Source: Candidatus Woesearchaeota archaeon (GTDB lineage Archaea; Nanobdellota; Nanobdellia; SCGC-AAA011-G17; PNOQ01). From it: DNA of 64,000 bases. The notes beneath the pieces are model-generated. The model worked only from the letters and a program-made list of their open reading frames with translations, did no database searches and was not told where the DNA came from. The DNA lies in NCBI GenBank assembly GCA_964408705.1, contig CAYPAI010000003.1, positions 5,382 through 69,381 of the forward strand. The letters are read 5' to 3'. A program made the translations under genes and the position numbers. This document shows, piece after piece, positions 32,068-49,631 of this stretch. How positions within the stretch are numbered: position 1 is the first letter of the stretch; each line of letters opens with the position of its first letter.

Positions 32068-32070
32068 TAT

Positions 32071-33138
32071 TTATCTCCTATAATAAGGGAAAAAATTATC
32101 GTTTACTTTGCTTTTGTTATTCCCGTCTACCGAGTCTCTGAGAGCGCATAGTCTTTTATAAGTTTTATTATCGTGAATTATATTTGCAGTATAAAGCCTT
32201 CTCCTTAACTTAGAAAAACTTTTTTTGAACTTAAATAATGAATCACCATCATTCAATCCACCCCCCAAATGAAGGAACTTATTTTTATTTTTTTTACCCA
32301 TCTTTATTGCCTCCCAAATTATTAAATTATTTGGTGATAAGTTTAAGTATGTTTTATCTGAACCGGCAAAATGATAATTGATAAATTTATCCATCTGAAT
32401 AAATAATGCTGCAGATATCATTTGGCCATTATGTTCTGCTATTATTATTGAAATTTTGTTTTTTAAAAATTTTAGATGGTTTTCAAAAAATTTAATCGGG
32501 AATAAATATTTTAAATTTGCTTTATTTTTCTTCATAGTAGATAGATACAATTTTGTGAAATTTTTTAGGTCTTTCTTGTCTTTTGAAAATCTTATTTTAA
32601 CATTTTTTTTAATGGCTTTTCTAATTAAATTTCTAGTTTTTTTATTTAGCTCCATTAAAATATGTTCTTGGGTTAAGTCTACATATACTGTTTTATTTTG
32701 TTTTTTTAGTTTATATAATCTTGAGTATATCTTATGGTTTTCTATTAAAGGATGAAATCTTATGAAGCTTGTAACAATCCTTTTCTTCTTACATAAAGAG
32801 GAGTATTCTAATTTGAAATATTCTAATAATTTTTCTTTATTTTTTCCAAATTTAGATAAAGGTCCTGAATAACCATAAGGAGAGATCAAATCATAATACT
32901 TTTTTCCATTCAGGTTTATTTCCCTTTTAATCAAACTTAAAAGTATAAACTCATTTTTATTTCCAAAGAATAATAAGATTGGTTTTCCACAAAAGTTTTC
33001 ATCGATATGTTTGTTATAATTATCATTGTATATTTTTAAATATTCTGGTGTAAAATATACATCCTTATCTTTGATTTTAGAAAGAAGTTTATTCCATTCT
33101 TTAGTGTTTTCAATGTCAATTATTTTAGACTCAAACAT
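32071..33138 (-). CDS. FemAB-like / GNAT (Acetyltransf_6) acyltransferase
   Basis: C-terminal ...LHLGGG...LFKFKKSF, typical of the FemAB/BioF2-like acyltransferase family. Sits inside the nonulosonic acid cluster. Confidence 0.45.
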   Translation of the reverse strand: MFESKIIDIENTKEWNKLLSKIKDKDVYFTPEYLKIYNDNYNKHIDENFCGKPILLFFGNKNEFILLSLIKREINLNGKKYYDLISPYGYSGPLSKFGKNKEKLLEYFKLEYSSLCKKKRIVTSFIRFHPLIENHKIYSRLYKLKKQNKTVYVDLTQEHILMELNKKTRNLIRKAIKKNVKIRFSKDKKDLKNFTKLYLSTMKKNKANLKYLFPIKFFENHLKFLKNKISIIIAEHNGQMISAALFIQMDKFINYHFAGSDKTYLNLSPNNLIIWEAIKMGKKNKNKFLHLGGGLNDGDSLFKFKKSFSKLRRRLYTANIIHDNKTYKRLCALRDSVDGNNKSKVNDNFFPYYRR

Positions 33139-34186
33139 TTTTTAATATTATCTCCATAATTTTTTTTATATCTTTTTGAGAGTATCTTTGGTCAATAGGT
33201 ATTGTTAATATTGTTTTTGATATTTTCCAGCAGTTTTCGAATTCCTTACAGTTTATCTCTTCTGGAAGGGCCCAGTGAATAGGGGGGTATATTTTATTTT
33301 GGATTAATTTTTGTCTTATTTCATTTCTAACTTCATTAGACTGAAACAAAACTGGAAATCCTAAGGGGCATTCTTCATTAGTTAGATTAGTTATTACTGG
33401 TTTTAATTTATTAGTTCGATTTATTTGTGATAAGACGTAGTTATAATTTTTTTTTCTTTTTAGGTGGATCTCATTAAAATTAGTTCTTTCTATGATATAT
33501 TTTGATACTTTGGATATAGGTTTAGGTCTCCTATAGTTATTGATTAATTTTTCTTCTGATCTGATTATCAGTTTTCTTGCTAGTTTTTTAAAACCTACTA
33601 GTTTTAAGATTCCTGCATATAATCTTGTTTTATAAAATTTATTTGTATGTGTGTTTGGTAATATCTTTTTTTTAAAATCTCCAATTAAGAATGCCCCATC
33701 TGGGACTGGTAAAAACTTTCGATAACTATTGAAATTAAAATCACCATATTTAATATGGGAAGAGATAAATGATTGTACATTGTCTTCAACTAGTTTAATC
33801 TTTCTTTTTTCACAAACTTTCTTTATTTCTTTTATTTTTGGTTGAATTTTTCCGAAATAATTAATTAAAAAAAGTAATTTTATTGATTTATCTTTTAGTT
33901 TATTTTTAATATCTGTTAAATTTGGTTCCAAGTTATTATTAAGTTTATAGAATTTATAGCCTATATTATTTTTTTTTAATGGTTCCAGTATTGAGTCGCA
34001 TAAATATGAAGGGACTAAAACTTTTGATTTAAAAGTTATATTTTGAGATTTTATTATGTAATCTATACAATCCCTTCCATTAGATAATAATATCATTTTT
34101 GGATGGATATTTTTTATTTTTTTAGTAAAGATTGGAAGTTTTATCTTAAAATCTCCTCCAATCTCTTTTTTAAGATTAGTAATCAT
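33131..34186 (-). CDS. DegT-like fold-type-I enzyme (second putative sugar aminotransferase/dehydratase)
   Basis: VLVPSYLCDSI, KLVEDNVQSF and FNSYRKFLPVPDG resemble the DegT pattern loosely. Confidence 0.35.
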   Translation of the reverse strand: MITNLKKEIGGDFKIKLPIFTKKIKNIHPKMILLSNGRDCIDYIIKSQNITFKSKVLVPSYLCDSILEPLKKNNIGYKFYKLNNNLEPNLTDIKNKLKDKSIKLLFLINYFGKIQPKIKEIKKVCEKRKIKLVEDNVQSFISSHIKYGDFNFNSYRKFLPVPDGAFLIGDFKKKILPNTHTNKFYKTRLYAGILKLVGFKKLARKLIIRSEEKLINNYRRPKPISKVSKYIIERTNFNEIHLKRKKNYNYVLSQINRTNKLKPVITNLTNEECPLGFPVLFQSNEVRNEIRQKLIQNKIYPPIHWALPEEINCKEFENCWKISKTILTIPIDQRYSQKDIKKIMEIILKNV

Positions 34187-35300
34187 TTTTTTTATCTATT
34201 AATTTTTTGTTTAATTCTATTTTTTCTAAGATTTTACATATTTTTCCTTCAAAATTTTTTGACTTATAAGGATTTTTCAAATTTTCTAGTTTTTTTATAA
34301 AATTTTTATTTATTGCCTTTTGTATAGCTCTAGTTATTTCTTTTTGATTATGTTTAACATTTAATACATTATTTCCTTGTTCTCTGCCTCTTTGTCTATT
34401 TCCTATATTGATGCAAGGGGTCTTGAATTGAGGAGTTTCAACTATTCCAGAACTTGAGTTCCCAACTATAGCTGAACAATTCTTTAGTAGGCCCAAATAT
34501 GTGGATGGTTTCAAATTCTGAAAAGCTATAAAATTATCTTTTGAACTATACTCTTCAATTAAATCAATCATTTCTTTGGAGCCAGGTTCACCATTGGGAT
34601 AGATGATTATTGATTTTAGGTTAAGATTTTCTATTGACTTTAGGGTTTCTTCTAATTGTTTTTTAGATTTTTTTATTTCAGAAAAAACTGGGTGTTGCAA
34701 TACTAAGATAATCTCTTTGGATAAATCTATTTTTAAAATTTTTTCTAATTTTTCTTTTTTTGTTATTTTATTAAACAAAGGAGTTCCTATCATATGGATT
34801 CTCCACTTTTCCTCTCCCATCTTGATTATTCTTTGTTTGCTTTTTTTACTTCCTGGAAAGTGTATGTGGGAAAGTTTAGTTAATGCATGGCGAATTCTAT
34901 CATCTATAGATCCTGATATGTCTCCCCCTGAAATGTGGATTAAAGGAATATTAAGATGCATTCCTGCTATTGCAGTTGCTAATTGTTCATATCTATCTCC
35001 TTCTATCAAAATCAAATCTGGTTTTATTTCTTCAAAGGTTTTTGATAGTTCAATCAATAATTCTCCTGTAAAAACTGAAGTGTTTAATCCCTTATGGGAG
35101 ATGTTTACTGATCCTCTAATTTTTTTAAAAATAGGTAATTTTGTTTTTTCCAAAATTTTGATTCCAAGTTTATTAGTTAGATGTGTTCCAGTTACAATAA
35201 GTTGTAATTCTAGGTTCTTATTTTGATTTATCTGTTGTAAGGTGGGTAACATTAATCCAAACTCAGATCTTGATCCTGTAACATAAGCTATTTTTCTCAT
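34176..35300 (-). CDS. neuC: UDP-N-acetylglucosamine 2-epimerase, hydrolysing (NeuC/LegG-like)
   Basis: MRKIAYVTGSRSEFG, GDRYEQLATA, HISGGD. Confidence 0.7.
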   Translation of the reverse strand: MRKIAYVTGSRSEFGLMLPTLQQINQNKNLELQLIVTGTHLTNKLGIKILEKTKLPIFKKIRGSVNISHKGLNTSVFTGELLIELSKTFEEIKPDLILIEGDRYEQLATAIAGMHLNIPLIHISGGDISGSIDDRIRHALTKLSHIHFPGSKKSKQRIIKMGEEKWRIHMIGTPLFNKITKKEKLEKILKIDLSKEIILVLQHPVFSEIKKSKKQLEETLKSIENLNLKSIIIYPNGEPGSKEMIDLIEEYSSKDNFIAFQNLKPSTYLGLLKNCSAIVGNSSSGIVETPQFKTPCINIGNRQRGREQGNNVLNVKHNQKEITRAIQKAINKNFIKKLENLKNPYKSKNFEGKICKILEKIELNKKLIDKKNDY

Positions 35301-36379
35301 TCTAAATCTTCCATAACTATTATTTTATTTTTTTGTATACTTTTTTTGGTTTTTTTACCTAAAATTTTCTTAATTTCTTCTGGTCTGATACCCTTACCAT
35401 CTGCTCTTTTCATAGATGTGTTATTTTTAGTTAGTGTATCTCCTTTTTCTAAATTGAAGCTAGATACTATCGACTTTTGAAGGACTTTTTTATTTTTTAG
35501 TTCTGTCTTAGTAGGTATTTTATCATAAGAACCCCTTATTAGGTCATAGAATTTAGTTCCAATTTTGTTTTTTACATATTCTTTCTTGTTTTGTATTTTT
35601 TCTAATTTTCTAATTTCAAGCACTAATTCCTTTAATTGAGAAGAAGATAGTGCAAATTTATGATCTGGCCCATCTGCTAATGGATCATGGGTAAAGTGTT
35701 TTTCTATTATCTTTGCTCCGAGTGATACGGCTACAAGTGAACATTCAATGCCTAAAGTGTGGTCCGAGTATCCTACTATTCCTCCAGTTTTTTCCCTTAT
35801 AGTTAGCATTGAATTTAAATTTGCATCTTCATATTTAGTAGGATATTCACTTGTACAATGGAGAAAAATTAAGTTATTATTTATTTTACTAATTTTTTTT
35901 TGAATATCTGTTATTTGTTCAATATTGCTCATTCCAGTAGAAATAATTATTTTTTTTTGATAACTTGCAACATATTTTAAAAAACCTATGTTTGTTAATT
36001 CTCCTGAGCCAATTTTGATTATAGGTAAGTTTAGTTCTTCTATTAAAAATTTTGCACTTTTTTCTTCATCTGGAGTAGATAAAAATAATATATTTTTTTC
36101 TTCACAATATCTTTTTAATTTTTCAAAGTCTTTGTAAGTGAGTTCTAAGTTTTTTATCATATCAAATTGGCTTTCATTAGAACTTGTTCTTTCTTTTTGA
36201 TAATCTGCTTTTTTAGTGTTAGGAATAATTAACTCTTCAGTGATCCATGTTTGAAATTTAACTGCATCTGCTCCAGAGTCTTTAGCAATATCTACTAATA
36301 GTTTAGCTTTATCTAAACTACCGTCGTGACAAACTCCTGCTTCAGCAATAATAAAACAGCTATTATCTTCAGATAACAT
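35297..36379 (-). CDS. neuB: N-acylneuraminate (nonulosonic acid) synthase, NeuB/LegI-like with SAF domain
   Basis: CFIIAEAGVCHDGSLDKAKLLVDIAKDSGADAVKFQTW plus a C-terminal antifreeze-like domain. Confidence 0.8.
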   Translation of the reverse strand: MLSEDNSCFIIAEAGVCHDGSLDKAKLLVDIAKDSGADAVKFQTWITEELIIPNTKKADYQKERTSSNESQFDMIKNLELTYKDFEKLKRYCEEKNILFLSTPDEEKSAKFLIEELNLPIIKIGSGELTNIGFLKYVASYQKKIIISTGMSNIEQITDIQKKISKINNNLIFLHCTSEYPTKYEDANLNSMLTIREKTGGIVGYSDHTLGIECSLVAVSLGAKIIEKHFTHDPLADGPDHKFALSSSQLKELVLEIRKLEKIQNKKEYVKNKIGTKFYDLIRGSYDKIPTKTELKNKKVLQKSIVSSFNLEKGDTLTKNNTSMKRADGKGIRPEEIKKILGKKTKKSIQKNKIIVMEDLE

Positions 36380-36428
36380 AGTAGATTATACTCCCATTAT
36401 AGGCATTATAAGTCTTGTGAAAAAAAGA

Positions 36429-36986
36429 TTAAGAACTGTTATTTTGGTTGTATTCTTCTATTTCCATCCAGATTGAGTTTGGTGGAAACATAAACATAAG
36501 AAAGCTTTTTTCATAATATGTTTGCATTCTTTCTGATTTATTTATTAATTTTTTAATTAAATTTATTGGAAAATATTTATCAAAGTTTAAATTAAACCAT
36601 ATCTTATTTATTTTTAGGTTATAGTCTCTATTTATCCAATCATTCTTCTTTTTTCTTCTCTTGTCTAAATTTCTTAAATCAGTTATAGAGTATCCCATTG
36701 AAGAGATATCCTTTTCAAATATTACTGTCGACCTATAAATCAAAGGTGTGAAGTTTATTATTACTTTTTGTCCAATCCTACATAGTTCTTTCAAACTTGG
36801 TATGATCTCAGAAGTTTTTATATATGGTGTTACGCTTTTGCAGTATACCACACTAAACTCTTTATTTTTGAAAGGTTGTAGTTTAGGTAGAGGGGGTACA
36901 ACTTTATCAGGATTTACTTCTTTAGTTATATCTACATTTAAATATTCTTTTAATTTTTCTTTCCCGCATCCATAATTAATCTTCAT
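36429..36986 (-). CDS. Small class-I SAM methyltransferase-like protein
   Basis: INYGCGKEKLKEYLNVDI resembles Methyltransf_11/23 motif I. Confidence 0.3.
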   Translation of the reverse strand: MKINYGCGKEKLKEYLNVDITKEVNPDKVVPPLPKLQPFKNKEFSVVYCKSVTPYIKTSEIIPSLKELCRIGQKVIINFTPLIYRSTVIFEKDISSMGYSITDLRNLDKRRKKKNDWINRDYNLKINKIWFNLNFDKYFPINLIKKLINKSERMQTYYEKSFLMFMFPPNSIWMEIEEYNQNNSS

Positions 36987-38299
36987 TTTTTCTCTCTGAA
37001 TACAGGTCTTATTGAATCTCCTGTGAGGTGTTTTTTTATGTTTTCATCTTTCATTAAACATTTCATTGAAACCATGGCTTCACCATATATCTTTAATGCT
37101 AAATCTATGTCTTTTTCATTATGGGCGTAGCATGGTGCATGGTATAATCCTGCCAAAAGTCCCCTTTTCATACATTCTTGCTGAAATAAACTTTTAAACT
37201 CAAGATTTTCGATATCTAAATCATTGCTGTCCACTTCTATATCTGTCCAAGGAGCATATCCTTCGCACCAAAAATAATTTTTCAAGTTTAATTCTTCTGA
37301 TTTTTTGTTAAATCCGTCCTTGAGTTTAGAACCCATATGCCATATATGATCTATTATGTTATTTTTTTTAATTAAATCTATACATTTTATTGCTCCAGCT
37401 AATGATGCGCATTCTCCTCCAAAAGTTGATGAAAAAAATACTCCATCGAAAGTAAAATTATCCATTAGTTCAGCCTTTCCAACTAATGCAGATATCGGCA
37501 TCCCATTACCTATTGCTTTTCCAAATGTTGCTAAGTCTGGAGTTACGTTAAAATATTTTTGTGCACCCCCTAAACTAAATCTAAATCCAGTTATAATTTC
37601 ATCAAATATATATATTGCACCATGTTTGTGTGTCAATTCTTTTGATTTTTGTAAGAAATTATCTTTGGGTTCAGAAAGCTGTACTGGTTCCAATATTACT
37701 GCGGCTATCTCATTTGGATGTTCTCTAAATAGTTTTTTTAAAGATTCTAAGTTATTGTACTCAAATTTTAAAGTTAATTCTCTTATCTCATTTGGTATCC
37801 CTTTTTTCCTGTTCGTAGTCCCTATAAACCAATCATGAAATCCATGATATCCTCCGACTGCTATTTTTTTTCTTCCAGTTACTGCTCTTGCTAATCTTAT
37901 TGCCATAGTTGTTACATCTGATCCATTTTTTGCAAATTTAACTCTTTCAGCACAAGGAATATTTTCAATTAGTTTTTTTGCAGCCTCATTTTCTATAGGG
38001 CTTGGCATTGGAAAAAGTAATCCTTTTTTTAACTGATTAGTTATTGCTTTGTTAAATTCTTCATTATTATATCCTAAAATTGCAGGAAATCCTCCTGGTG
38101 CTAAATCTAGGAATTTATTCCCATCTACATCCCAGACATAACAACCCTCTCCCCTTTCTAAAAATTTAGGAGATGAGTTTGATACGTATTGAGTAGATCC
38201 ATGGCTTAAGGTATGGCACTGTGCAGGGATCGTAGTTTTTGCTTCAGAAAATATTTCTTCAGATTTTTTGTAATTATAATTTTTTAAATATTCATCCAT
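36983..38299 (-). CDS. Class-III PLP aminotransferase (glutamate-1-semialdehyde aminomutase-like)
   Basis: IFDEIITGFR; the PLP lysine region TFGKAIGNG. Confidence 0.65.
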   Translation of the reverse strand: MDEYLKNYNYKKSEEIFSEAKTTIPAQCHTLSHGSTQYVSNSSPKFLERGEGCYVWDVDGNKFLDLAPGGFPAILGYNNEEFNKAITNQLKKGLLFPMPSPIENEAAKKLIENIPCAERVKFAKNGSDVTTMAIRLARAVTGRKKIAVGGYHGFHDWFIGTTNRKKGIPNEIRELTLKFEYNNLESLKKLFREHPNEIAAVILEPVQLSEPKDNFLQKSKELTHKHGAIYIFDEIITGFRFSLGGAQKYFNVTPDLATFGKAIGNGMPISALVGKAELMDNFTFDGVFFSSTFGGECASLAGAIKCIDLIKKNNIIDHIWHMGSKLKDGFNKKSEELNLKNYFWCEGYAPWTDIEVDSNDLDIENLEFKSLFQQECMKRGLLAGLYHAPCYAHNEKDIDLALKIYGEAMVSMKCLMKDENIKKHLTGDSIRPVFREKK

Positions 38300-39026
38300 C
38301 TTGAGTTTCCTCCTTCATAATTAGTTCTGCTAACTTGAATTGAATAATATCATCTATTTCTATACTTCTTTTTTTTGGCATCAAAACTATTTTTGTTTTT
38401 AAGTGACTGTTTTCCCCATATGGATTAAATATTTTTGTGTTTGGGTCAAATAAGGTGTTATAAGTTATAGCATATACACCACCATTTATTATTAATTTAT
38501 TAAACTTATCATCTTGTCTTCTACTGTTTAATTTTTCTGTGTTTTCATATGGCTCAATATATCCATCTAATTTTTTAACCATTATGTCTGAGTTATCTAT
38601 TTCAAAAGGTGTAACTCCTACTACTGTGTTGACATCCTCTTTTTTTATTTCTTTAATTGCATTTTCAATATCTTCAATACTTCTTAGTGGGCTTGTCGGT
38701 TCTAATAAAATTATATACTCATAATGTTCCCCATTTTTTTCAAGGAATTTAGTTGCATGTCTTACTACTTCCATTGATGATGCACTATCTGTAGCTAAGT
38801 GTTCTGGCCTAATAAATGGTACTTCTGCACCATATTTTTTAGATATTTCTGCAATTTCCAAGTCATCTGTTGATACTATAGTTTTGTCTATTGATCTACA
38901 TTTGAGGGATTTTTCTATAGTATGGGCTATAAGTGGTTTTTTATTAAACTTTTTAATGTTTTTTCTAGGAATTCCTTTTGATCCGCCCCTTGCAGGTATT
39001 ACTGCTAATACTTTATTTTTTTCCAT
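38292..39026 (-). CDS. neuA: CMP-nonulosonic acid synthetase (acylneuraminate cytidylyltransferase, NeuA/LegF-like)
   Basis: VLAVIPARGGSKGIPRKNIKKFNKKPLIAHTI. Confidence 0.75.
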   Translation of the reverse strand: MEKNKVLAVIPARGGSKGIPRKNIKKFNKKPLIAHTIEKSLKCRSIDKTIVSTDDLEIAEISKKYGAEVPFIRPEHLATDSASSMEVVRHATKFLEKNGEHYEYIILLEPTSPLRSIEDIENAIKEIKKEDVNTVVGVTPFEIDNSDIMVKKLDGYIEPYENTEKLNSRRQDDKFNKLIINGGVYAITYNTLFDPNTKIFNPYGENSHLKTKIVLMPKKRSIEIDDIIQFKLAELIMKEETQDG

Positions 39027-40020: not shown

Positions 40021-40268
40021 AGTTTTACCTCTATAATTTGGTTTAGTTCTATTACTAGTTTTTCTTTTTGTTCATTAGACAGACCATGGGTCTCCATAGC
40101 TTCACCAAGTGTTTCTTTCCAGCTTCTCCTTCTACACATTGAACAGTAAAGGCCATACCTTCCCATGATCTTGCTTAAAATTTCATTGTCTGTAGATAAT
40201 ATTTTTTCTATAGGTGTATTTTTGTTTATGTTACTAGTATTTTCTTTTTTTATTTCTTTATCTTTCAT
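40017..40268 (-). CDS. DUF1858-like small protein (hybrid-cluster-associated redox-disulfide domain)
   Basis: GLYCSMCRRRSWKETLGEAMETHGL...LVIELNQI matches the DUF1858 pattern (C..C...TLEEA...HG). Confidence 0.35.
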   Translation of the reverse strand: MKDKEIKKENTSNINKNTPIEKILSTDNEILSKIMGRYGLYCSMCRRRSWKETLGEAMETHGLSNEQKEKLVIELNQIIEVKL

Positions 40269-41859
40269 AGTTTTTTATTATGTCCTTTATTTCCTTTATG
40301 ATCCTAGTTGTTGTCTTTCCATCTAATTTATAGCAATATTTTTTTATAAATTCCTTATTCTCCTTGTTTAATTTCTCTTTATATCTTTTATTAAATAGAA
40401 TTTTTTTGCTTTCTTTGTATAATTCTTCTGGTTTTTTAATTTTAGGGATTCCTTTGCTGTTTTTGTGAAAAACTCCATCCTTATCTATCATCTCACATGG
40501 ATAAATATCTATAAGTACTACTGGTTTTTTTAGAATACTAGCTTCCCATATTACTGAAGAGTAAAATGTTATTAACATATCTGAGTTTTTGATTAAAGAG
40601 TATAGGTGTTTTTTTCCTAGTTTTGCCTTTTTTATCTTGAAGTTTGTTAAATTTTTATTTTTAATTATTTTCGAGTATTCTACTATATTTTTTTCAAGAG
40701 GATGTGGTTTTATGATTATGTCATATCCCTCTATTTTTGATAATTTTTCTAGATATTTAGATATGTGTTTGAAGTATTTATCTTTTGAAATTACGTTTTC
40801 TTCAACCATAGGAGAGGTGCTGAATAAGATATATTTTTTCTTCTTTTTTTTATCTTCTGTTTTTGAAAATCTTATGAGTTTATTGTTAAAAATACTTCCA
40901 ACTACTCTTATTTGGTTTTTATTTGCACCTTTAGCTATGAACATTTTTTTTTGTAATTCGCCTGCTGTAAGAATGTGATGTGTATTTGGTAAATCCCATC
41001 TATATCCTGTAAGTCCGATTCCGTGAGAGATAGTTATACTTGGAATATTTAATTTATCTGAGGAGTATACTAGACACCTATCAGTTATATTATTTGGGGC
41101 ATAGAGGATTGATCCTTTAGTATTATTAATTTTTAATATTTTTTTGAAAGTTTCATAGTATAATATGGTAATAAATATCATTTCTTTTGAAAAAAAGAAG
41201 TTAAATGAATCATGATATATGTTAAATATTTGTTTATTTAATCCAGAAAATCTTATTTTTTTATTAACTATTTTCCAGTTATTAGATATTATTTTAGAAG
41301 CTAATTTAGCTTTTTTAATTTCTTTTAAGCCAACAAAACTGTTTAATAAATTTTTATGCTTTAATATGGAAAAGGAAATTTTTTCAGATAAGGGACTGAT
41401 TATGACCATATTTTTTTTTAAAGTTTTTTCCTTATCTATCAAGTTTAATACTTCTTCTATTCTGTCTATTTTATGTTTATGCTTGGTGAAAGATATTGCA
41501 TTAGTGTGTATTTGAAATAAGAGGTTTGAGTTCATATTTTTATTTAATCTTTTTTCTGTTAGTTTAGATAGTATTATTTTTCCAATTTCATTAAATAAAA
41601 TTCCTTTCCTTCTTAAATAATTTTTTAATCTTTTTCTTTTTGAATGTTTTTTTCTAATTAGTTTTATAATTGTAGAATCAAAATTATTAAAACCAGGGGG
41701 TAACATATTTCTTGCAAATCTTCTCCTATAGAAATTATCCCAAATAGAGTATCCATCATGTTTGAAATATTCTGAGAATTTAATTTCTCCGATTTTCTTG
41801 GTGGAAAGTTTATCAAAAAAATCTTCTAATTTACTGTATAATTCCTTTTTTAATTGCAT
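40258..41859 (-). CDS. CDP-glycerol glycerophosphotransferase-like (TagB/TagF family) putative phospho-alcohol transferase
   Basis: Basic 533-aa protein. DIIIKPHPLEK resembles the KPHP catalytic-His motif of the Glyphos_transf family. The call rests on one motif. Confidence 0.35.
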   Translation of the reverse strand: MQLKKELYSKLEDFFDKLSTKKIGEIKFSEYFKHDGYSIWDNFYRRRFARNMLPPGFNNFDSTIIKLIRKKHSKRKRLKNYLRRKGILFNEIGKIILSKLTEKRLNKNMNSNLLFQIHTNAISFTKHKHKIDRIEEVLNLIDKEKTLKKNMVIISPLSEKISFSILKHKNLLNSFVGLKEIKKAKLASKIISNNWKIVNKKIRFSGLNKQIFNIYHDSFNFFFSKEMIFITILYYETFKKILKINNTKGSILYAPNNITDRCLVYSSDKLNIPSITISHGIGLTGYRWDLPNTHHILTAGELQKKMFIAKGANKNQIRVVGSIFNNKLIRFSKTEDKKKKKKYILFSTSPMVEENVISKDKYFKHISKYLEKLSKIEGYDIIIKPHPLEKNIVEYSKIIKNKNLTNFKIKKAKLGKKHLYSLIKNSDMLITFYSSVIWEASILKKPVVLIDIYPCEMIDKDGVFHKNSKGIPKIKKPEELYKESKKILFNKRYKEKLNKENKEFIKKYCYKLDGKTTTRIIKEIKDIIKNYER

Positions 41860-43060
41860 TTTTTAATTTTGCTCTCCTTATAGATTTGCTTATTACTAAA
41901 AATAATTTATGTGCAAATGATTTAGTAATTAAATAATCAAATTTCATGATTGGTTTAAAATAAAACTTATTTTTGTTAAGAAAATCTATTTCTTCCCTAT
42001 ATAGCTTAAATCTTTTATTTAATACTTTCAGATATTCCTTTTTAATCTTAAAATTTTTTAAAGATTTATGTTTTATTAAATAGTCAAGGTAAATTCTTTG
42101 GTAAAAAAATTCTATAGGTAATACTGAATTTATTTCTTTTGTTTTTTTATAGATTCGGTTAGTTTTTTCGAATGAATCTTTTGAATCCCATTTTTTCAAG
42201 AATATACAGCTGTGTTCTTTTTCGATAAAAATGGCTATTTTTAAGTTTGAGTTAATGAATTTATTTTTTTTATATTCTTTTTTTAATTCTTCTATTAAGA
42301 AATAATTAAAAATTATGTTTTTTTTCATAATTTTGATAAGAGTGTCATATTTTTTGGGACCTAGTTTAAACCAATCTCTTCTTAATTTGTCTATACTGAG
42401 CATGTGTTTTTCCCATTCTGGGTACTTTTTGTTTGTTATTTCTTTCAATAGGTGCAAAGGATATTTCATGGAATTAAGTCTAGATAATACATTCCGTATA
42501 GGAATTTCCAATTTTCCTAAATTTATACCAAAAAGTTTAGATATTTCTTTAAAAATATATGAATATTTATTATTTGTTTTTATTTTCTTTTCTAAAAAGT
42601 ATCTTGTAAACTCTCTTGGCCAGTGAAAATTTATGTAGTCAGTTAATATTATTGTAGAGATTATTTTTTTATTTTTTATTTTTTTTATTTTTATGCTATT
42701 CCCATGCAACTTTTTTATAGAGAATACTGGGAATAAGTAATTTAATTCTGAAAAGTTTTTTTCACTTATCATTAAAGGATGGTGCATAATCAAGTAAGGA
42801 TGGGTCTTCATTGATTTTTCGATATAAGTTATGGTATTTTTTGTATCTACAATTTTATTTTTTAGTACAACTATAAAATCTAAGTCAGACATACCTAGTC
42901 TTGATACTTCACCGATTTGGTATATTGCACTAACATCTTTAGATTTTGAAACATATCTAATGAAATCTTTTTTTGCTTTATCATAATCAAGATTATTACG
43001 TTTTTTTGGAACATCTCTAAAGGTGAAGTTATCTTTTTGAATATCATTAAAAATTTTCAT
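41831..43060 (-). CDS. Nucleotidyltransferase-fold protein (minimal pol-beta-like motif), paralogous to the next gene
   Basis: QIGEVSRLGMSDLDFIVVL (G..S...DxD) near the N-terminus. Extremely Lys/Ile/Asn-rich. Confidence 0.3.
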   Translation of the reverse strand: MKIFNDIQKDNFTFRDVPKKRNNLDYDKAKKDFIRYVSKSKDVSAIYQIGEVSRLGMSDLDFIVVLKNKIVDTKNTITYIEKSMKTHPYLIMHHPLMISEKNFSELNYLFPVFSIKKLHGNSIKIKKIKNKKIISTIILTDYINFHWPREFTRYFLEKKIKTNNKYSYIFKEISKLFGINLGKLEIPIRNVLSRLNSMKYPLHLLKEITNKKYPEWEKHMLSIDKLRRDWFKLGPKKYDTLIKIMKKNIIFNYFLIEELKKEYKKNKFINSNLKIAIFIEKEHSCIFLKKWDSKDSFEKTNRIYKKTKEINSVLPIEFFYQRIYLDYLIKHKSLKNFKIKKEYLKVLNKRFKLYREEIDFLNKNKFYFKPIMKFDYLITKSFAHKLFLVISKSIRRAKLKNAIKKGIIQ

Positions 43061-44262
43061 TATTTCTCCTTTCTTAATTTTTTTTCCATCTTTGTTGCTA
43101 AGCTATCTGAAGCTATGATTAGTTTTTTCTTTTGTTTATCTAACTTAATAGGTTGTAAGTATGTTATCAAAGATGGTAGGTGTGGATTCCCTAATTTTGC
43201 CATTACTTTTAATATTTTTTTTAAAAGTTTATTCTCTTCTTTCCAGTTTTTCCTTATTTCTGTTGCCAAATCTATTGGTTCCCAATAATCAGTAAATTCT
43301 TTTTTAGCTGTATTGAAAGATTTTTTTTTATGAATATGGTGTCCTTTAGCTTGAAGATATAGTGTTGGAAGTAATAAGAGTTTAGATAAAAATAGTTTCC
43401 ATTGATATTTATTTTTTATTTTTATTTTATTATTTTTTACTTTGTTAAAATATTCTGTAAATTTTAAAAATATTTTTTTTCTTTCATCAAAATCATCTAA
43501 TACATCAAATTTTAATTCCTTTTTTCGGTTAGTTATTGCAATACAATGTTTGAATAGGTTTATTGGAAAATAATTTTGAGGATAGTTTTTCATTTCTTGT
43601 TCCAGAATTATTGAAAAACCATGGTGTTGTGCTGAGTCTAGAGTATAGAATTTGGATCTTAGTTTGGCAACTTCTTTCCTTAAACTAATTATTTTTTTCC
43701 ATTTCCAAGTGGTTTTTTCTTTTATTATAATCAGTGTATCAAGATCACTAAACCCTTTATAGTAATCTAAGGTAGACATACTTCCCTGTAAATAAATTCC
43801 ATCTACCCACTTTGATAAATCTTTAGATTTTTCTTCTATTTTGAATATGGGTTTTAAAAATTCTTTATCATTTGTTCTATTTTTCCAGTCATAGTAGTTT
43901 ATTATATCTTTTTTATTAATTATTTTTTTTGTTTTTGATAGGTTTAATGTAATAATTTGCTCATAAAATTCTTGTATTAGTAAGCTAATTATTTTTGAAT
44001 ATTTCTTAGAACTGAGATTTTTGTTTTTATTAGATTTGACTATCACATAACTGTATCTTAATATGTTGTTATATTCTTTGTTTATAGTTTTTATTTCTTT
44101 TAGAAGATGAGTTAGGTCATTTTTTGTTGTATCTATCATTGGGAAAAATAATTTGCTGCTAATTGTTAAGTTATCTAGATTTATGAACTCCTTAATTCTT
44201 TTGTGTAAACTGTTTTGATAGTTTAAGATTACATTTATTCTTGACATTTTTATTATCTTCAT
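43060..44262 (-). CDS. LicD-like nucleotidyltransferase-fold protein (candidate phospho(no)alcohol transferase)
   Basis: LQGSMSTLDYYKGFSDLDTLIII parallels the LicD core ([20 protein letters not shown]): G[ST]-x6-[HY]KGF-x-DxD. Confidence 0.4.
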   Translation of the reverse strand: MKIIKMSRINVILNYQNSLHKRIKEFINLDNLTISSKLFFPMIDTTKNDLTHLLKEIKTINKEYNNILRYSYVIVKSNKNKNLSSKKYSKIISLLIQEFYEQIITLNLSKTKKIINKKDIINYYDWKNRTNDKEFLKPIFKIEEKSKDLSKWVDGIYLQGSMSTLDYYKGFSDLDTLIIIKEKTTWKWKKIISLRKEVAKLRSKFYTLDSAQHHGFSIILEQEMKNYPQNYFPINLFKHCIAITNRKKELKFDVLDDFDERKKIFLKFTEYFNKVKNNKIKIKNKYQWKLFLSKLLLLPTLYLQAKGHHIHKKKSFNTAKKEFTDYWEPIDLATEIRKNWKEENKLLKKILKVMAKLGNPHLPSLITYLQPIKLDKQKKKLIIASDSLATKMEKKLRKEK

Positions 44263-44344: not shown

Positions 44345-45331
44345 TTGAAGATGAATCCAGAAGTATCAATAATCATTGTGACATGGAATCAGCCTAGTTA
44401 TACTATTCCTTGTGTAAGGTCTGTTCTTCAGCAAACTGGAAGTTTTGAGGTCATTATAGTAGATAATGGGTCTAAAGACGATTCAATTAGGAAGTATAGG
44501 GATAACTTTGGAAAAAATGGAAAAGTTAAGATTATAGCTTCTAATAGAAACTTGGGGTATGCTGGTGGAAATAATCTTGGAGTAAAAAAAAGTAAGGGTA
44601 AATATATTGTTATTTTGAATAATGATACTACTGTAGAACAAAACTGGTTAAATGAGCTTATCAAACCCTTAAAAGAGGATGAGGATGTTGGTGCAGTTAA
44701 TTCACATGAGATTAGGAATGGCAAAAGAATAAGTATAAATTATTTTAAAAATTTTGAGGTTAAAATGAATGTGCTTCAGTATGGGGTTAAACAAAAAAGA
44801 AAAAAGCAATTAAAAGATTTAGAAATTATCGATTCTGGAAGTATAAAAGGTGCTTGTTTTGCATACAGGAGAGAACTTATTGGGATCCCATTCGATAAAG
44901 ATTATTTTATCTACGGGGAAGATACTAAACTGGGATGGATTATAAAATGTAAAGGATATAAGATTAAGACTGCCATTAAGTCTGTATTTAACCATCATCA
45001 TAATGTTACACGTAAGGAAAATAAAACTTTCAATAAACATGCGGCATTTTTAGGTGAGAGAAATATGATTATGAATTTACTTACTTTTTATAATCTTTTT
45101 AATACTCTTAGGATTATTCCATTTTTAATTTTAAGAATATTTGTTATAAATATTTTACAACCTAGAGATATTTTTATGAGAATTAAGGCATATCTGTGGT
45201 TGTGTTTAAACTTAAAATTAGTTTTTAAAAAAAGAAAAGAAATTTCTTTCTTAAAAATCAACAAAGACAAAGAATTATTTAAGGATCTGACTTGGAAATT
45301 TTTTTCACGTACCTCAGAGGATTACAATTAA
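44345..45331 (+). CDS. Family-2 glycosyltransferase
   Basis: VSIIIVTWNQ...IIVDNGSKDDS...NLGYAGGNN...LNNDT. Confidence 0.7.
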   Translation: MKMNPEVSIIIVTWNQPSYTIPCVRSVLQQTGSFEVIIVDNGSKDDSIRKYRDNFGKNGKVKIIASNRNLGYAGGNNLGVKKSKGKYIVILNNDTTVEQNWLNELIKPLKEDEDVGAVNSHEIRNGKRISINYFKNFEVKMNVLQYGVKQKRKKQLKDLEIIDSGSIKGACFAYRRELIGIPFDKDYFIYGEDTKLGWIIKCKGYKIKTAIKSVFNHHHNVTRKENKTFNKHAAFLGERNMIMNLLTFYNLFNTLRIIPFLILRIFVINILQPRDIFMRIKAYLWLCLNLKLVFKKRKEISFLKINKDKELFKDLTWKFFSRTSEDYN

Positions 45332-46449
45332 TATATTTTTTTTAATATCTCGATTAAGTTTTGCTTTTTGATTCTTCTTGGATTATTTTTCATTCTGTCT
45401 TTGTTAAATCCATTGTTTATAATGATATCAATATCTTTCTTTGTATTAATTTTTAGACTATTTAGTGAAGTTTCTAAATTAATTTTTTTTAATAATTTTT
45501 TTAAGTCTTGCCTAGGATTTTTGAATTTTGTTAAATCTTTTAATTTGTCCATAGTTTGTTTTACATATTTTAAACCCCGAATATCTTCGCAATCCTTAGA
45601 GTTTGTTTTTAAATTATATTCAAATATTTCTCCTAGGGTTAATGAAACTGCATGTCCATGAGGGATCCCAAAATAGGAAGTTAATGGGTAGGAGATTGAA
45701 TGACATGCTGTAGTTTGAGATATATTTATTGCTTTTCCTGCTAAGTTAGATGCTTTTGACATCATAATCCTATTTTTCTTACTTGGATTGTTTACTGCAT
45801 CTTCAATGTTTTCTATAGTTAGAGTTATTGCTTTTTTTGCATACATTTTAGATTCTTCTGTAGATTTAATTGACCAGTAACTCTCTATGGCCTGACTTAA
45901 TGCATCCATTCCAGTACTTGCAGTGATATGTGGTGGCAGATTAAATGTTAATTCAGGATCAATTATGGAATAATCTGGTAATATCTTTTTGTTATTTAAT
46001 GAATGTTTATTTTTTCCAATATACACTGTAGCAAATTGAGTTGCTTCGCTTCCAGTTCCCGAAGTTGTGGGGATTGCAATTAATTTATTGTTTTTTTTAA
46101 TTAGACTTTTATTTTTTAGAATATAACTTATTGGGTTTTCTTTTTGATAAGCTAGAATATTTATCGATTTTGCTATATCTATCACGCTACCTCCGCCAAT
46201 TGCAATAATCATATCATAATCTTTTTTATTGTATTCTTTAATTCCTTTTTCTATATCTTTTAATTTGTTATTTTTTGAAAAATTGTTAAATTGAGTAAAA
46301 TTATAACTGGATAAAATATTTTCTAATTTTTGTTTTATTTTGCTGTATGATCTTTTACCAGTAATTAAAAAAATATTTTTAGAATTCTCCTTTTTTAAGA
46401 TATCCTCTAAATGGTGTATACTTCCTGTTCCAAAATATTCTTTTTGCAT
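45328..46449 (-). CDS. Group-III iron-containing alcohol dehydrogenase (candidate phosphonoacetaldehyde reductase, PhpC/FomC-like)
   Basis: DMIIAIGGGSVIDIAKS metal/NAD motif. Immediately downstream of the phosphonopyruvate decarboxylase gene, in the same operon orientation. Confidence 0.6.
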   Translation of the reverse strand: MQKEYFGTGSIHHLEDILKKENSKNIFLITGKRSYSKIKQKLENILSSYNFTQFNNFSKNNKLKDIEKGIKEYNKKDYDMIIAIGGGSVIDIAKSINILAYQKENPISYILKNKSLIKKNNKLIAIPTTSGTGSEATQFATVYIGKNKHSLNNKKILPDYSIIDPELTFNLPPHITASTGMDALSQAIESYWSIKSTEESKMYAKKAITLTIENIEDAVNNPSKKNRIMMSKASNLAGKAINISQTTACHSISYPLTSYFGIPHGHAVSLTLGEIFEYNLKTNSKDCEDIRGLKYVKQTMDKLKDLTKFKNPRQDLKKLLKKINLETSLNSLKINTKKDIDIIINNGFNKDRMKNNPRRIKKQNLIEILKKIY

Positions 46450-46450
46450 T

Positions 46451-47578
46451 TTATTTTTTTAAAAATTTCATGAATGATTTTTTGTTTTCAATTGGTAAGG
46501 TTTTTGGTCTTCCCAAATCATTCCTACTGCCCTTTCTTATTTTTATTTCTAATAGTATTGGCCCATTTTTTTCCTTTAAAAATTTTAAATTATGTTTTAA
46601 TTCCTGTTTATTTTTTGCTTCTAGAGTATGTTTATAATTACAGGCTCTTGCAATTTTTTGGAGATCTATATATCTGCTAGATGTTGGTTGACCACCTACT
46701 GAATCATGTGATTCGTTGTTAAAAATTATGTGTTTAAAATTAGTTGGAGAAATTGATCCTATTGTTGCTAATGCCCCCATATGCATGATTAAAGATCCAT
46801 CACCATCTAAACAGAATATACTTTTGTCTTTTTTTTGTAAAGCTATGCCCAATGCAATTGAAGATGTGTGCCCCATTGATCCAACTGTATAAAAATCATT
46901 TTCATGTTTTTGATAGTTTTTTTCTCTAAACTCAAATAACTCTCTAGATAGTTTTCCCGTAGTAGAAACTATTACGTTTTCCTTATTTAAACCTTTAACA
47001 ACTTCAGTTAATGCTTCTTCTCTTGAAAGGTTATACTTCTTTGGCGATTCTTCAAGTAATTCATATTGTTCAAAAGTATTTTTTTTAATTACTAATGCAT
47101 AAGGAGAATTATTCTTTTCAGAATAATTTACTGCTTCGGTTATAATTTTAGAAATTTCCTTTGTTTCAGACGATATTATCTTGTAAGGTATTTCTAAATC
47201 TTCTAATAATCTTAAAGTAATTTTTCCTTGTTTTATATGTTGTGGCTCATCCTTTAATCCTGGTTCCCCCCTCCACCCTATCATTAATAATAATGGGATG
47301 CTATAAACTTCTTTGTCAGTTAATGAGCTTAAAGGATTTATTGCGTTTCCTTGTCCAGAATTTTGTAAGTATGCTAGTCCAATTTTTTTAGTAGATAAGT
47401 GATATCCTGCAGCTAATGCTATAGAATTTCCTTCATTTGCAGCAATTATATGGTTTTGTTTATCTACATTATCTTGAAGATATGCGCAAAATGATTTCAG
47501 TAAGGAATCTGGGACCCCTGTGAAAAATTCTATCCCATTTTTCTTTAAAATATTATAAAATTCTTTTATATTTATCAT
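46451..47578 (-). CDS. ppd: Phosphonopyruvate (sulfopyruvate-type) decarboxylase, TPP-dependent
   Basis: [14 protein letters not shown]-domain. TPP motif [16 protein letters not shown]...[11 protein letters not shown]. About 375 aa. The start was trimmed to Met 16, giving a 4-nt overlap with the upstream gene. Confidence 0.65.
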
Positions 47579-48873
47579 TTGTGTTCTGGAATTAAGTTTA
47601 TTATCTCCTTGATAGGCATACATATTTTATTGTTAGCTTCAAAAGATCTTCCTTCTTTTAAGATAGATTCTGCAGTTTTTATCATTGCAGGGTATGCACT
47701 TCTTAAAAGATGATTTGCATAAATTACTACACTAATTCCCTCTTTTTTTAATTCTTTTTCTGTGATATGGCAATATGTGGAAGGTACTACTACTAATGGT
47801 ACTTTATTCTCTATTTTGGAGAATTCCTTGCAAAACTCTAATATCTCTGTTGATTCTTTTTCTTTACTATGAATCATTATTCCATCGGCCCCTGCCGAAA
47901 TGTATGCTTTTGATCTTTTTATTGCGTCTTCTATTCCCTTTCCTAGAATTAGACTTTCTATCCTTGCAATTATCATAAAATCTTCCGATATCTGTGATTT
48001 TTTTCCTGCTTTTATTTTTTTACTGAACAATTCCATACTGTCTTGTTTTTGGTTAGCATCTTTTCCGAATAATGAATTTTTTTTGAATCCTATTTTGTCT
48101 TCTATTATTATTGCAGATACTCCAAGTCGTTCTAATGTCCTAATTGTAAATGGAAAATGTTCTGTTCTCCCTCCAGTATCTCCATCAACTATAATTGGTT
48201 TTGTAGTTGTTTCTATTACTTGATTTAAGGTATCCATTCTTTCAACTAGTTCTATGTCAGGTTTTCCTTTTGCAGTTGAATCAGTTAAACTACTTATCCA
48301 AATTCCATCAAATTCTTCTTTTTTATTATTTTTTATTATTTTTGTATTTTCTACTATGAGTCCACTTAAGCCATTATGTGCTTCTAAAAATCTAATAATC
48401 TCTTTTGCATTCAATAATCTTCTTAATTTTTTCATTCTAATCTCAGGAGTGGTTCCAATTTTTTTAATTAGTTGATGTAATTGGGTTGAAGAGATTCCTG
48501 GAGTATATGGTATTTCTATTAGTTCCCCACCCCATAAGGAAATAGTGTCTAAAACTCTTTTTCTTGTTTCTTTTTGTATTCCTTCTTTCCAATCATCTCC
48601 ATGTACAACATAATCTGGTTTTATTTTCATTAAATTTGGAACATAATCTAAGGTATCTTGAGGGACAACTTGGCTAATTCCCTTGATATTCTCAATTACT
48701 TTTTTTCTTTGTTCATAAGTCAGGGCAGGCAATCTTTTGTAGCTGGCTATCGCTTTGTCAGTTAGTAATCCCAATGTCACTTCCCCATATTTTTTTGCTT
48801 CGTTGATTATGTTTAGGTGTCCGTGATGTATTAAATCTGCACTCATCCCAATATACACTTTTTTAGCTTTCAT
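47575..48873 (-). CDS. pepM: Cytidylyltransferase-PEP mutase fusion (N-terminal HxGH nucleotidyltransferase, C-terminal phosphoenolpyruvate phosphomutase)
   Basis: N-terminal [16 protein letters not shown] (CTP-transferase HxGH). C-terminal [12 protein letters not shown]...DGDTGG...[14 protein letters not shown], that is the PepM-specific EDKxxxxxNS motif that separates PepM from other ICL-family members. Confidence 0.75.
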
Positions 48874-48968
48874 TTTATAATTTTAGATTTTAAACTATTA
48901 ATAAAAGTTGTTTATCTATGTTCTATATTAAAAATTGATGATTATATCGAAAATTAAATAAACATATC

Positions 48969-49631
48969 TTGATTTATAAGGATATGAGTCAGATTATGAA
49001 TTTAAGAAAAAAGCCATATAGTGAGTCTTATTTAACTCAATTATTTAGATTTTTTTCTTATCCATTTACATATTTACTTTGTAAGATTAATGTTACACCT
49101 AATCAAATCTCATTTTTTAGTTTTATTTTAGTTTTATTTTCAGCATATCTTTTTTCTACAGGATTAAGTAATTATTTAGTAGTTGGTGGTCTAATTTATT
49201 TTTTTAGTGCAATTTTAGACCATTCAGATGGTGAAGTTGCAAGAGTAAAGGGTGTTGAGAGTAAATTTGGTATGTGGTTTGATGGAGTTTTAGATAGGGT
49301 TGGAGATGTTTTTGTTTTAATAGGTATCTCTATAGGTGTTTTTGTTAAATCTCCTAAAATAGAAATTTTAATATTAGTTTTATTTGCAGTTATTAGTACT
49401 ACCATCTGGAGATTTTTAACTCTTTATACTGATTCAATTTTAAATTTTGATAAAAATACTACTATAAAAGCTAAAAAGATTGGTTTTGATGCTCCTATGA
49501 TGTATTTTTTAGTAACTTTAGCAGCGTTATTTGATAAATTTGTTTATCTTTTGTTATTTTTTGCAATTTTAGTAAATTTGGCATGGGTAAGAAATTTAAT
49601 TATTTGGTCCATTAAATATAGAAAAACCTAA
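48969..49631 (+). CDS. CDP-alcohol phosphatidyltransferase-family membrane protein
   Basis: DHSDGEVARVKGVESKFGMWFDGVLDRVGD matches D-G-x2-A-R-x8-G-x3-D-x3-D. Multi-TM. Confidence 0.65.
   Translation: MIYKDMSQIMNLRKKPYSESYLTQLFRFFSYPFTYLLCKINVTPNQISFFSFILVLFSAYLFSTGLSNYLVVGGLIYFFSAILDHSDGEVARVKGVESKFGMWFDGVLDRVGDVFVLIGISIGVFVKSPKIEILILVLFAVISTTIWRFLTLYTDSILNFDKNTTIKAKKIGFDAPMMYFLVTLAALFDKFVYLLLFFAILVNLAWVRNLIIWSIKYRKT

Follow-up and report, generated by a model that had tools for sequence, protein, structure and literature searches.

Within a 64,000-nucleotide stretch of a Candidatus Woesearchaeota contig (hereafter the window), we analyzed a compact cluster of genes predicted to make an activated phosphonate. 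It consists of a cytidylyltransferase fused to a phosphoenolpyruvate (PEP) mutase (PepM), a phosphonopyruvate decarboxylase (Ppd) and an iron-dependent alcohol dehydrogenase (ADH), together called the cassette here, and of a divergently transcribed CDP-alcohol phosphotransferase (CDP-OH transferase). A sequence-only reading had proposed four open reading frames (ORFs), and all were found where it placed them, at 45328-46449 (-), 46451-47623 (-), 47575-48873 (-) and 48969-49631 (+). The motifs it quoted, HxGH, EDKxxxxxNS, GDG...NN and the Asp motif of CDP-OH enzymes, were each recovered in the ORF translations. The ORFs stand, and two starts were moved, that of Ppd to 47578 and that of the transferase to 48984. 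The features of the locus are as follows.

45328-46449, minus strand: iron-dependent ADH of group III (Fe/Zn), from the ORF list with PF00465 and PF25137
46451-47578, minus strand: Ppd, with a likely ATG start at 47578 (375 aa) and an ORF readable from 47623
47575-48873, minus strand: cytidylyltransferase-PepM fusion of 432 aa (PF01467 and PF13714)
48457-48873, minus strand: N-domain of the fusion, residues 1-139, a HIGH-type cytidylyltransferase (PF01467, likeness to 5x3d, HHGH)
47575-48435, minus strand: C-domain of the fusion, residues 147-432 plus the stop codon, a PEP mutase (TIGR02320, PF13714)
48874-48983, no strand: AT-rich divergent spacer, the presumed site of both promoters (from the sequence; TATA-like strings are uninformative at 28% GC)
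48984-49631, plus strand: stand-alone CDP-OH transferase of 215 aa (PF01066; ORF readable from a TTG at 48969)

The ATG at 47578 overlaps the stop codon of the fusion as ATGA, and in relatives Ppd has 374-376 aa and its gene shares 4 nt with the fusion. Because the overlap and the sizes agree, 47578 is the most likely Ppd start. Together with a gap of 1 nt between Ppd and ADH, the ATGA overlap indicates that the fusion, Ppd and ADH form a single tight minus-strand operon. For the transferase, the ATG at 48984 is the most likely start and agrees with the JGI gene call of 215 aa, so that the divergent spacer is 110 bp and not 95 bp.

Pfam placed PF01467 at residues 11-132 of the fusion (61.2 bits, 1.6e-16) and PF13714 at residues 150-405 (3e-55). 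Against the NCBIfam equivalog TIGR02320 PEP_mutase (EC 5.4.2.9), the PepM domain scored 388.9 bits, above the cut-off of 319.55, and all sister-family models fell below theirs: prpB methylisocitrate lyase at 101.1 (354.4), carboxy-PEP mutase at 55.5 (420) and phosphonopyruvate hydrolase at 141.8 (374.4). The EDKxxxxxNS motif is present in the C-domain. In an alignment with Mytilus PepM (1m1b), residues D58, D85, D87, E114, K120, N122, S123, R159 and H190, which we take to be its catalytic and Mg-binding residues, are all identical in the fusion. The domain is thus a genuine PepM, as had been proposed, on the grounds of the equivalog score, the failure of the methylisocitrate lyase and carboxy-PEP mutase models, and the aligned active site.

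The N-domain is identical to PDB entry 5x3d at 86 of 136 positions (63%, E = 1.9e-59). The database title of that entry reads just 'phosphoenolpyruvate phosphomutase'; we take it to be the cytidylyltransferase domain of Fom1 from the fosfomycin pathway of Streptomyces wedmorensis. This domain of Fom1 transfers CMP from CTP onto 2-hydroxyethylphosphonate (HEP) to give CMP-HEP (Rice et al., PMC6697681). The prediction that the phosphonate is CMP-activated is supported by this resemblance, the product of the characterized homologue being CMP-HEP, and we infer from the 63% identity and from the ADH partner that the N-domain is a CTP:HEP cytidylyltransferase. JGI labels homologues of the fusion 'phosphoenolpyruvate phosphomutase / 2-hydroxyethylphosphonate cytidylyltransferase'. 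Fusions of PF01467 to PEP mutase (Ppm) are found in 2-aminoethylphosphonate (AEP) clusters too (PMC8942020).

Ppd carries the GDG...NN motif for binding of thiamine pyrophosphate (TPP), matches PF02776 and PF02775, and scored 504.1 bits against TIGR03297 (cut-off 312.5). The equivalog therefore agrees with its assignment as a TPP-dependent phosphonopyruvate decarboxylase. The ADH shows the complete group III fold (PF00465 at 135 bits, 2.6e-39; PF25137 at 124 bits, 7.2e-36), and its gene comes directly after Ppd in all 11 annotated relatives and in some 60 of the 80 related loci. Fold and synteny uphold the group III ADH claimed for the cassette, and family membership with conserved synteny suggests that the enzyme is a phosphonoacetaldehyde reductase of the PhpC/FomC type, yielding HEP. 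Around residues 176-190 it reads GMDALSQAIE, with Gln at what is presumably the customary position of the first metal-binding histidine in group III ADHs; the best PDB match, 6jko, does likewise (GMDVLSQAIE). A catabolic role as HEP dehydrogenase (PMC13576164) was ruled out by the operon with PepM and Ppd and by the lack of phnX, phnA and phnY.

In the Pfam annotation of 10 kb on either side, there is no AEP transaminase, no MpnS/HEPD enzyme and no radical SAM gene, in line with the absence of a transaminase and of an MpnS/HEPD-like cupin that had been noted before. A class III aminotransferase at 36983-38299 was considered as an AEP transaminase and rejected; its best match is glutamate-1-semialdehyde aminomutase (422, below 486).

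Next, we turned to the CDP-OH transferase. It scored 50.6 bits against PF01066 (gathering score 22), and its motif DHSDGEVARVKGVESKFGMWFDGVLD fits D-x2-D-G-x2-A-R-x8-G-x3-D-x3-D. Its scores against more specific models were 74 for archaetidylinositol-phosphate (AIP) synthase NF040950 (cut-off 180), 64 for IPCT/DIPPS NF041135 (cut-off 580) and 53 bits for phosphatidylinositol-phosphate (PIP) synthase, and its best PDB match is AF2299 (4o6m, 4mnd). It is a stand-alone protein of 215 aa, and no inositol-1-phosphate synthase is encoded in the window region around it. Judged by these scores, the transferase is not the housekeeping AIP synthase, an identity that the sequence-only reading had named as fatal to its proposal; moreover, the gene is missing at this position in the closest relative. 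The sequence neighbors of the transferase are IPCT/DIPPS-like enzymes, which use a soluble CDP-alcohol supplied by a partner cytidylyltransferase. No other CDP-alcohol-making enzymes are encoded near it.

We then asked where CDP-OH genes lie in relatives. In the window, the transferase adjoins the cassette and is divergently transcribed. In locus L169, whose fusion is 73% identical, a CDP-OH gene of 214 aa comes next after ADH, in the same orientation, and its product is 43% identical to the window transferase (99% coverage, E = 1e-56), the best homologue found anywhere. L171 has a CDP-OH gene immediately downstream of its cassette in the same arrangement. In the P0003 contig (fusion 76% identical), the fusion is preceded, 31 bp away and on the same strand, by a CDP-OH gene of 243 aa, and ADH is followed by a cytidylate kinase gene; the flanks of that contig match those of the window, with PMT-GT2-DUF2304-GT4-GT4-methyltransferase on one side and flippase-SpoIIM-IF-2B-HAD-RuBisCO on the other (GT, glycosyltransferase). 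In the P0004 contig, the CDP-OH gene is 5 kb from the cassette. Altogether, such a gene accompanies the cassette in 5 of 12 loci (the window and its 11 closest relatives) and is immediately adjacent in 4. A hidden Markov model (HMM) scan found CDP-OH genes near the cassette in 7 of 12 long archaeal and 1 of 46 long bacterial genome loci (Fisher p = 2e-5). At 4 such genes per Mb of archaeal genome, a density that we assumed, the chance of at least 7 such loci is P <= 7e-6. The in-operon orthologue and the archaeal enrichment back the proposed link between cassette and transferase.

Several further arrangements were observed in these loci. Tandem, divergent CDP-OH paralogues stand by the cassette in a Methanosarcinales metagenome-assembled genome (MAG), which has three, and in a Bacillota MAG, which has two (L045:6562-9655, L057:5940-7591); this suggests diversification toward different acceptors. 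The cassette operons of relatives also contain accessory genes: the cytidylate kinase gene already mentioned follows ADH, a gene for a HIT-like protein separates the fusion from Ppd, and a second PF01467 cytidylyltransferase, standing alone, is encoded shortly before the fusion (P0003 contig, L171:11287-11913, L170:2900-3430, L171:9456-10004, L172:9456-10004). Many DPANN relatives, unlike the window, have genes for B12-binding radical SAM proteins (450-530 aa) right beside the cassette (L169:8474-9916, L171:18545-19891, L173:8583-9995; also L004, L006, L008 and L016). The best matches of the one in L169 are P-methyltransferase families (Sden_1168, 245.6 below 575; PhpK family, 108.7 below 600), a hint that the relatives bearing such genes make phosphonates or phosphinates methylated on C or P.

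On this evidence we consider it probable that the cassette is a donor module for CMP-HEP and that the CDP-OH transferase at this locus moves the HEP group to a membrane or surface acceptor. In the proposed pathway, PepM would convert PEP to phosphonopyruvate and Ppd would convert phosphonopyruvate to phosphonoacetaldehyde, the decarboxylation pulling the unfavorable equilibrium forward. The group III ADH would reduce phosphonoacetaldehyde to HEP, and the cytidylyltransferase domain would join HEP and CTP into CMP-HEP, a structural analogue of a CDP-alcohol. Strong homology speaks for the PepM, Ppd and cytidylyltransferase steps as predicted. The Asp-rich motif of the CDP-OH transferase would then bind the metal-pyrophosphate portion of CMP-HEP, and an acceptor hydroxyl would attack the phosphonate phosphorus, releasing CMP and forming acceptor-O-P(O)(O-)-CH2CH2OH. 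It is genomic context that assigns this transfer step to the CDP-OH enzyme. In the P0003 relative, CMP would be recycled by the operon-encoded CMP kinase.

The acceptor could be an archaeol-type lipid, a lipid-linked glycan or a small phospho-alcohol. The characterized members of the CDP-OH family known to us use lipid or small-alcohol acceptors, and for that reason a phosphonolipid or a small phosphonodiester is favored; the glycan-island context and the known glycan esters of HEP favor a lipid-linked glycan. In its specific form, with HEP as the head group of an archaeol-type lipid, possibly acquired from a host, and made from CMP-HEP by a DIPPS/AF2299-like CDP-OH enzyme, the lipid outcome strikes us as unlikely. 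More speculatively, HEP, which bears both a hydroxyl and a phosphonate, may be polymerized or further glycosylated by analogy with glycerol-phosphate in teichoic acids.

A number of observations weigh against this explanation. We know of no characterized CDP-OH family member with a glycan acceptor, so the family fits poorly with a glycan island. In the closest relative, whose fusion is 90% identical, the cassette is present although no CDP-OH gene lies within 10 kb of it, indicating that the cassette can do without one. A metagenome search with the transferase gave 80 best relatives (29-43% identity), none of which has the cassette; most are IPCT/DIPPS-like fusions of about 440 aa, and 31 of the 80 adjoin an inositol-1-phosphate synthase. 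That pattern-based search overlooked the 43% identical orthologue of L169, which was recovered via relatives of the fusion only, so that the absence of cassettes bounds the transferase link without refuting it. A word-index search with the transferase gave 3 matches only. Furthermore, the cassette-linked CDP-OH proteins are mutually divergent (20-43% identity), and their association with the cassette is therefore one of the family and not of a single clade. Since the loci are not phylogenetically independent, the p-values given above overstate the evidence and are indicative only. AIPS, PIPS and DIPPS share inositol-1-phosphate as acceptor and differ in donor type, so the sequence affinity of the transferase could reflect its acceptor. 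Finally, the ADH reached the cut-off of no NCBIfam equivalog, and its score against the phosphonate-associated model Phn_Fe-ADH TIGR03405 was 189.6 (cut-off 423.7). PhpC-type enzymes are highly divergent (PMC13576164), which makes this failure weak evidence against a role as phosphonoacetaldehyde reductase.

The slot beside the cassette is filled by other genes in other genomes. LicD-like genes occupy it in L172 and L173 and are found in 15 genome loci; homologues of TagF-like glycerophosphotransferases lie immediately next to the cassette in some 20 loci, most of them bacterial; and a conserved GT-B-like gene of 375-382 aa fills it in L085, L170 and L174. In a relative represented by P0021, a sulfatase and a 510-aa PF01663 phosphodiesterase directly follow ADH. 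The donors of LicD, TagF and CDP-OH enzymes alike are CDP-activated phospho-alcohols. Read most simply, a constant cassette would supply the CMP-HEP donor, and alternative transferases, each specific to its acceptor, would be paired with it. The window encodes further candidate partners and their neighbors at positions below 45328:

40258-41859, minus strand: TagF-like / capsule-synthesis-like GT-B protein of 533 aa (PF04464 at 37.7, PF02350 at 37.9 and PF05159 at 24 bits)
41831-43060 and 43060-44262, minus strand: two distantly related proteins of 409 and 400 aa (21% identity) between the cassette and the TagF-like gene
29934-39026, minus strand: complete-looking nonulosonic-acid operon, legionaminic or pseudaminic type, by family matches
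28424-29941, minus strand: type I phosphodiesterase / nucleotide pyrophosphatase family protein of 505 aa (PF01663 at 131 bits)

The 533-aa protein, whose gene shares an operon with the nonulosonic-acid genes 3.5 kb from the cassette, matches the HMM of the cassette-abutting bacterial TagF-like genes (E = 8e-17). It is a competing candidate for CMP-HEP transfer to a glycan, or it may be a transferase for a CMP-nonulosonic acid. The PF01663 protein is a third, weaker candidate partner. The 409- and 400-aa proteins were ruled out as LicD-like phosphotransferases by the lack of any match to the LicD-cluster HMM; they have a Polβ-type fold instead, with a Polβ-type nucleotidyltransferase motif (hGS...D.D), and a profile search placed them in an uncharacterized family of 1,211 cluster representatives. 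The nonulosonic-acid operon encodes a PseB-like dehydratase, a DegT aminotransferase, a FemAB-like protein, a NeuC-like epimerase, NeuB, a class III aminotransferase, a CMP-sugar synthetase (CTP_transf_3) and a GFO/IDH/MocA oxidoreductase.

These genes bear on an alternative that we regard as improbable, in which HEP goes onto a glycan (an N-glycan, an S-layer glycan or an exopolysaccharide precursor) through the TagF-like protein or another island enzyme, and the CDP-OH transferase, a lipid or solute synthase, is a neighbor of the cassette with no functional connection to it. TagF-like genes do abut the cassette in bacteria, the 533-aa protein fits their HMM, and genes for GT2, GT4, AglB and flippase abound in the island; the closest relative, with its cassette and no CDP-OH gene, points the same way. 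HEP and methylphosphonate are known as glycan esters in S. nassauensis and N. maritimus (PMC8942020, PMC9381506). However, the 533-aa protein is at a distance in a CMP-nonulosonic-acid operon and also matches Capsule_synth and Epimerase_2, so that it may transfer nonulosonic acid, and the orthologue inside a cassette operon, together with the enrichment in archaea, links the CDP-OH gene to the cassette.

The roles could also be reversed: if CDP-archaeol were the donor and the acceptor were free HEP, or a different phospho- or phosphono-alcohol, the product would be an archaetidyl-HEP ending in a phosphonate, by the logic of AIP and phosphatidylglycerophosphate (PGP) synthases. The best NCBIfam matches of the transferase (AIP 74, DIPPS 64 and PIP 53 bits) all take an anionic phospho-alcohol acceptor, a description that HEP fits, and the reaction would likewise set CMP free, consistent with the cytidylate kinase in the P0003 operon. 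Nevertheless, we think this quite doubtful. The fused cytidylyltransferase would be superfluous for such a transfer, yet it is invariant in the cassette, and the LicD- or TagF-like enzymes found in the slot at other loci require a head group activated with CDP. To our knowledge, DPANN archaea generally lack lipid synthesis, and no CDP-archaeol synthase was found within the 64-kb window.

A diffusible phosphonate, such as a fosfomycin-like molecule or a soluble phosphonodiester resembling di-myo-inositol phosphate (DIP), in place of a surface or membrane decoration is very unlikely: Fom1, Fom2 and FomC do catalyze the first fosfomycin steps (PMC6697681) and the transferase is closest in sequence to DIPPS-like solute synthases, but genes for a Fom3-type radical SAM enzyme, an epoxidase or a CMP-hydrolase are absent from the window, and the cassette sits among glycan and flippase genes in every archaeal relative.

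The surroundings of the cluster were examined as well. GC content is 24-36% across the window and composition is unbroken at the cluster. Archaeal markers comprise PCNA, diphthamide synthase, AglB/STT3 and an S-layer-like protein; the PCNA homologues that carry names (55-63% identity) all belong to Candidatus Woesearchaeota, Nanoarchaeota or 'archaeon' MAGs, in support of the DPANN-type host assumed earlier. The same contig recurs in marine metagenomes. The glycosylation island described around the cluster is real: GT2, GT4, AglB, a Polysacc_synt flippase, PMT and the nonulosonic-acid pathway are present, along with methyltransferases, DUF2304 and the type I phosphodiesterase-family protein. 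An ORF of 1379 aa at 6470-10609 (+) has no Pfam match, and a 690-aa protein at 13059-15131 (+) matches PF05124 (S-layer outer domain) weakly; both are probably surface proteins and are possible glycan carriers for the island. An AMP-salvage trio (AMP phosphorylase, form III RuBisCO and ribose-1,5-bisphosphate isomerase of the IF-2B family) is clustered at 16464-17936, 20218-21618 and 22252-23055. The SpoIIM / IF-2B / HAD / RuBisCO flank is syntenic in contigs with P0001, P0003 and P0031, and what varies from strain to strain is the content of the glycan island between this flank and the cassette.

Comparison with known systems places the locus among several. Like Fom1/Fom2/FomC of Streptomyces wedmorensis, it has an N-terminal PF01467 domain fused to PepM, followed by Ppd and a group III ADH, with CMP-HEP as the predicted product. 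By contrast, it has no Fom3, Fom4 or FomD in the Pfam annotation of ±10 kb and is not an antibiotic cluster; it lies in an archaeal surface-glycan island beside a CDP-OH gene, where cytidylylation presumably serves transfer and is not transient. IPCT/DIPPS and AF2299 are the closest sequence relatives of the transferase, and in them too a cytidylyltransferase feeds a soluble CDP-alcohol to a CDP-OH partner. The window enzyme differs from IPCT/DIPPS in standing alone at 215 aa with a score far under that model's cut-off (64 < 580), in having no inositol-1-phosphate synthase neighbor, and in the fusion of its cytidylyltransferase partner to PepM. The phosphonolipids of ciliates are made by a Kennedy-type CMP-AEP:diacylglycerol phosphonotransferase. 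Likened by description only, this eukaryotic enzyme is also a CDP-OH enzyme taking a CMP-phosphonate as a CDP-alcohol analogue, although its head group is AEP and not HEP and its products are eukaryotic ester lipids.

The PntC-Ppm phosphonyl-tailoring clusters, including the 'Burkholderiales CDP-OH family' (PMC6697681, PMC8942020), share with the locus a nucleotidyltransferase-Ppm fusion, a CMP-phosphonate head group and a nearby, uncharacterized CDP-OH- or LicD-type transferase, with a cell-surface or lipid product predicted. Those clusters make AEP through an AEP transaminase (AEPT) and mostly have PF12804, whereas here the host is archaeal, HEP would arise via ADH, the domain is PF01467 and the CDP-OH enzyme is DIPPS/AF2299-like. 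The methylphosphonate cluster of Nitrosopumilus maritimus and the HEP-phosphonoglycan systems of Stackebrandtia and Glycomyces likewise use PepM, Ppd and ADH to reach HEP in a glycan-gene neighborhood, and they esterify the product to a polymer; the present locus has no MpnS, belongs to DPANN and not Thaumarchaeota, and has a CDP-OH enzyme instead of sulfatase- or LicD-like partners.

The cassette is widespread. The best 120 of at least 8000 candidate homologues of the fusion are 68-90% identical to it and all have the identical two-domain architecture. Some 60 of 80 genome loci, drawn from many phyla of archaea and bacteria, keep the order fusion, Ppd, ADH; hosts among the 80 include Woesearchaeota, Pacearchaeota, Nanoarchaeota, Lokiarchaeum and Methanosarcinales on the archaeal side, and Bacteroidales, Marinifilaceae, Syntrophomonadaceae, Spirochaetes, Clostridium, Gastranaerophilales and a Nomurabacteria genome on the bacterial side. 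The fusion of this archaeon is 64-73% identical to those of bacteria (Ignavibacteria, Bacteroidales, Syntrophomonadaceae and others), which exceeds the 55-63% of PCNA among Woesearchaeota and thereby suggests that the cassette moved between domains by transfer. Of the RefSeq Ppm proteins, 23.6% are PF01467 fusions (PMC6697681), a Methanoperedens Borg element carries a similar fusion within a glycoconjugate region (PMC12660748), and a Ppm cluster type with a CDP-OH gene is catalogued for AEP in Burkholderiales, its product not given (PMC8942020). The fusion and the three-gene cassette are thus a published, annotated and widespread class, and the architecture is not new. The sequence-only reading was right about the three steps and the nucleotidyl activation and overrated their novelty. 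In DPANN, the cassette is visible in public records, but we found no discussion of it in the literature searched. Archaeal operons that pair HEP with a CDP-OH transferase of the DIPPS/AF2299-like type appear undescribed.

The transfer of phosphonates onto lipids and glycans has been called 'enigmatic' (Rice et al., PMC6697681), and in the literature searched we found no characterized prokaryotic transferase for CMP-phosphonates. With the synthesis of CMP-phosphonates understood, the locus nominates a concrete, testable candidate for the uncharacterized transfer step. The pattern of a constant donor and a swapped transferase nominates CDP-OH, LicD-like and TagF-like enzymes as alternative CMP-HEP transferases, and compact operons such as CDP-OH – Fom1-like – Ppd – ADH – CMP kinase offer systems in which this could be tested. 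Marine high-molecular-weight dissolved organic phosphorus is recognized to contain HEP esters (PMC9381506); a possible added source of them is the marine DPANN archaea, which the published surveys searched do not name as phosphonate producers. If the HEP lipid of archaeol type were true, it would be the first archaeal phosphonolipid as far as we found, and the missing CMP-phosphonate transferase of 'phosphonyl tailoring' would be identified. A phosphatase-resistant modification of head groups or of the surface could matter for symbiont-host interaction in organisms thought to depend on their hosts for lipids.

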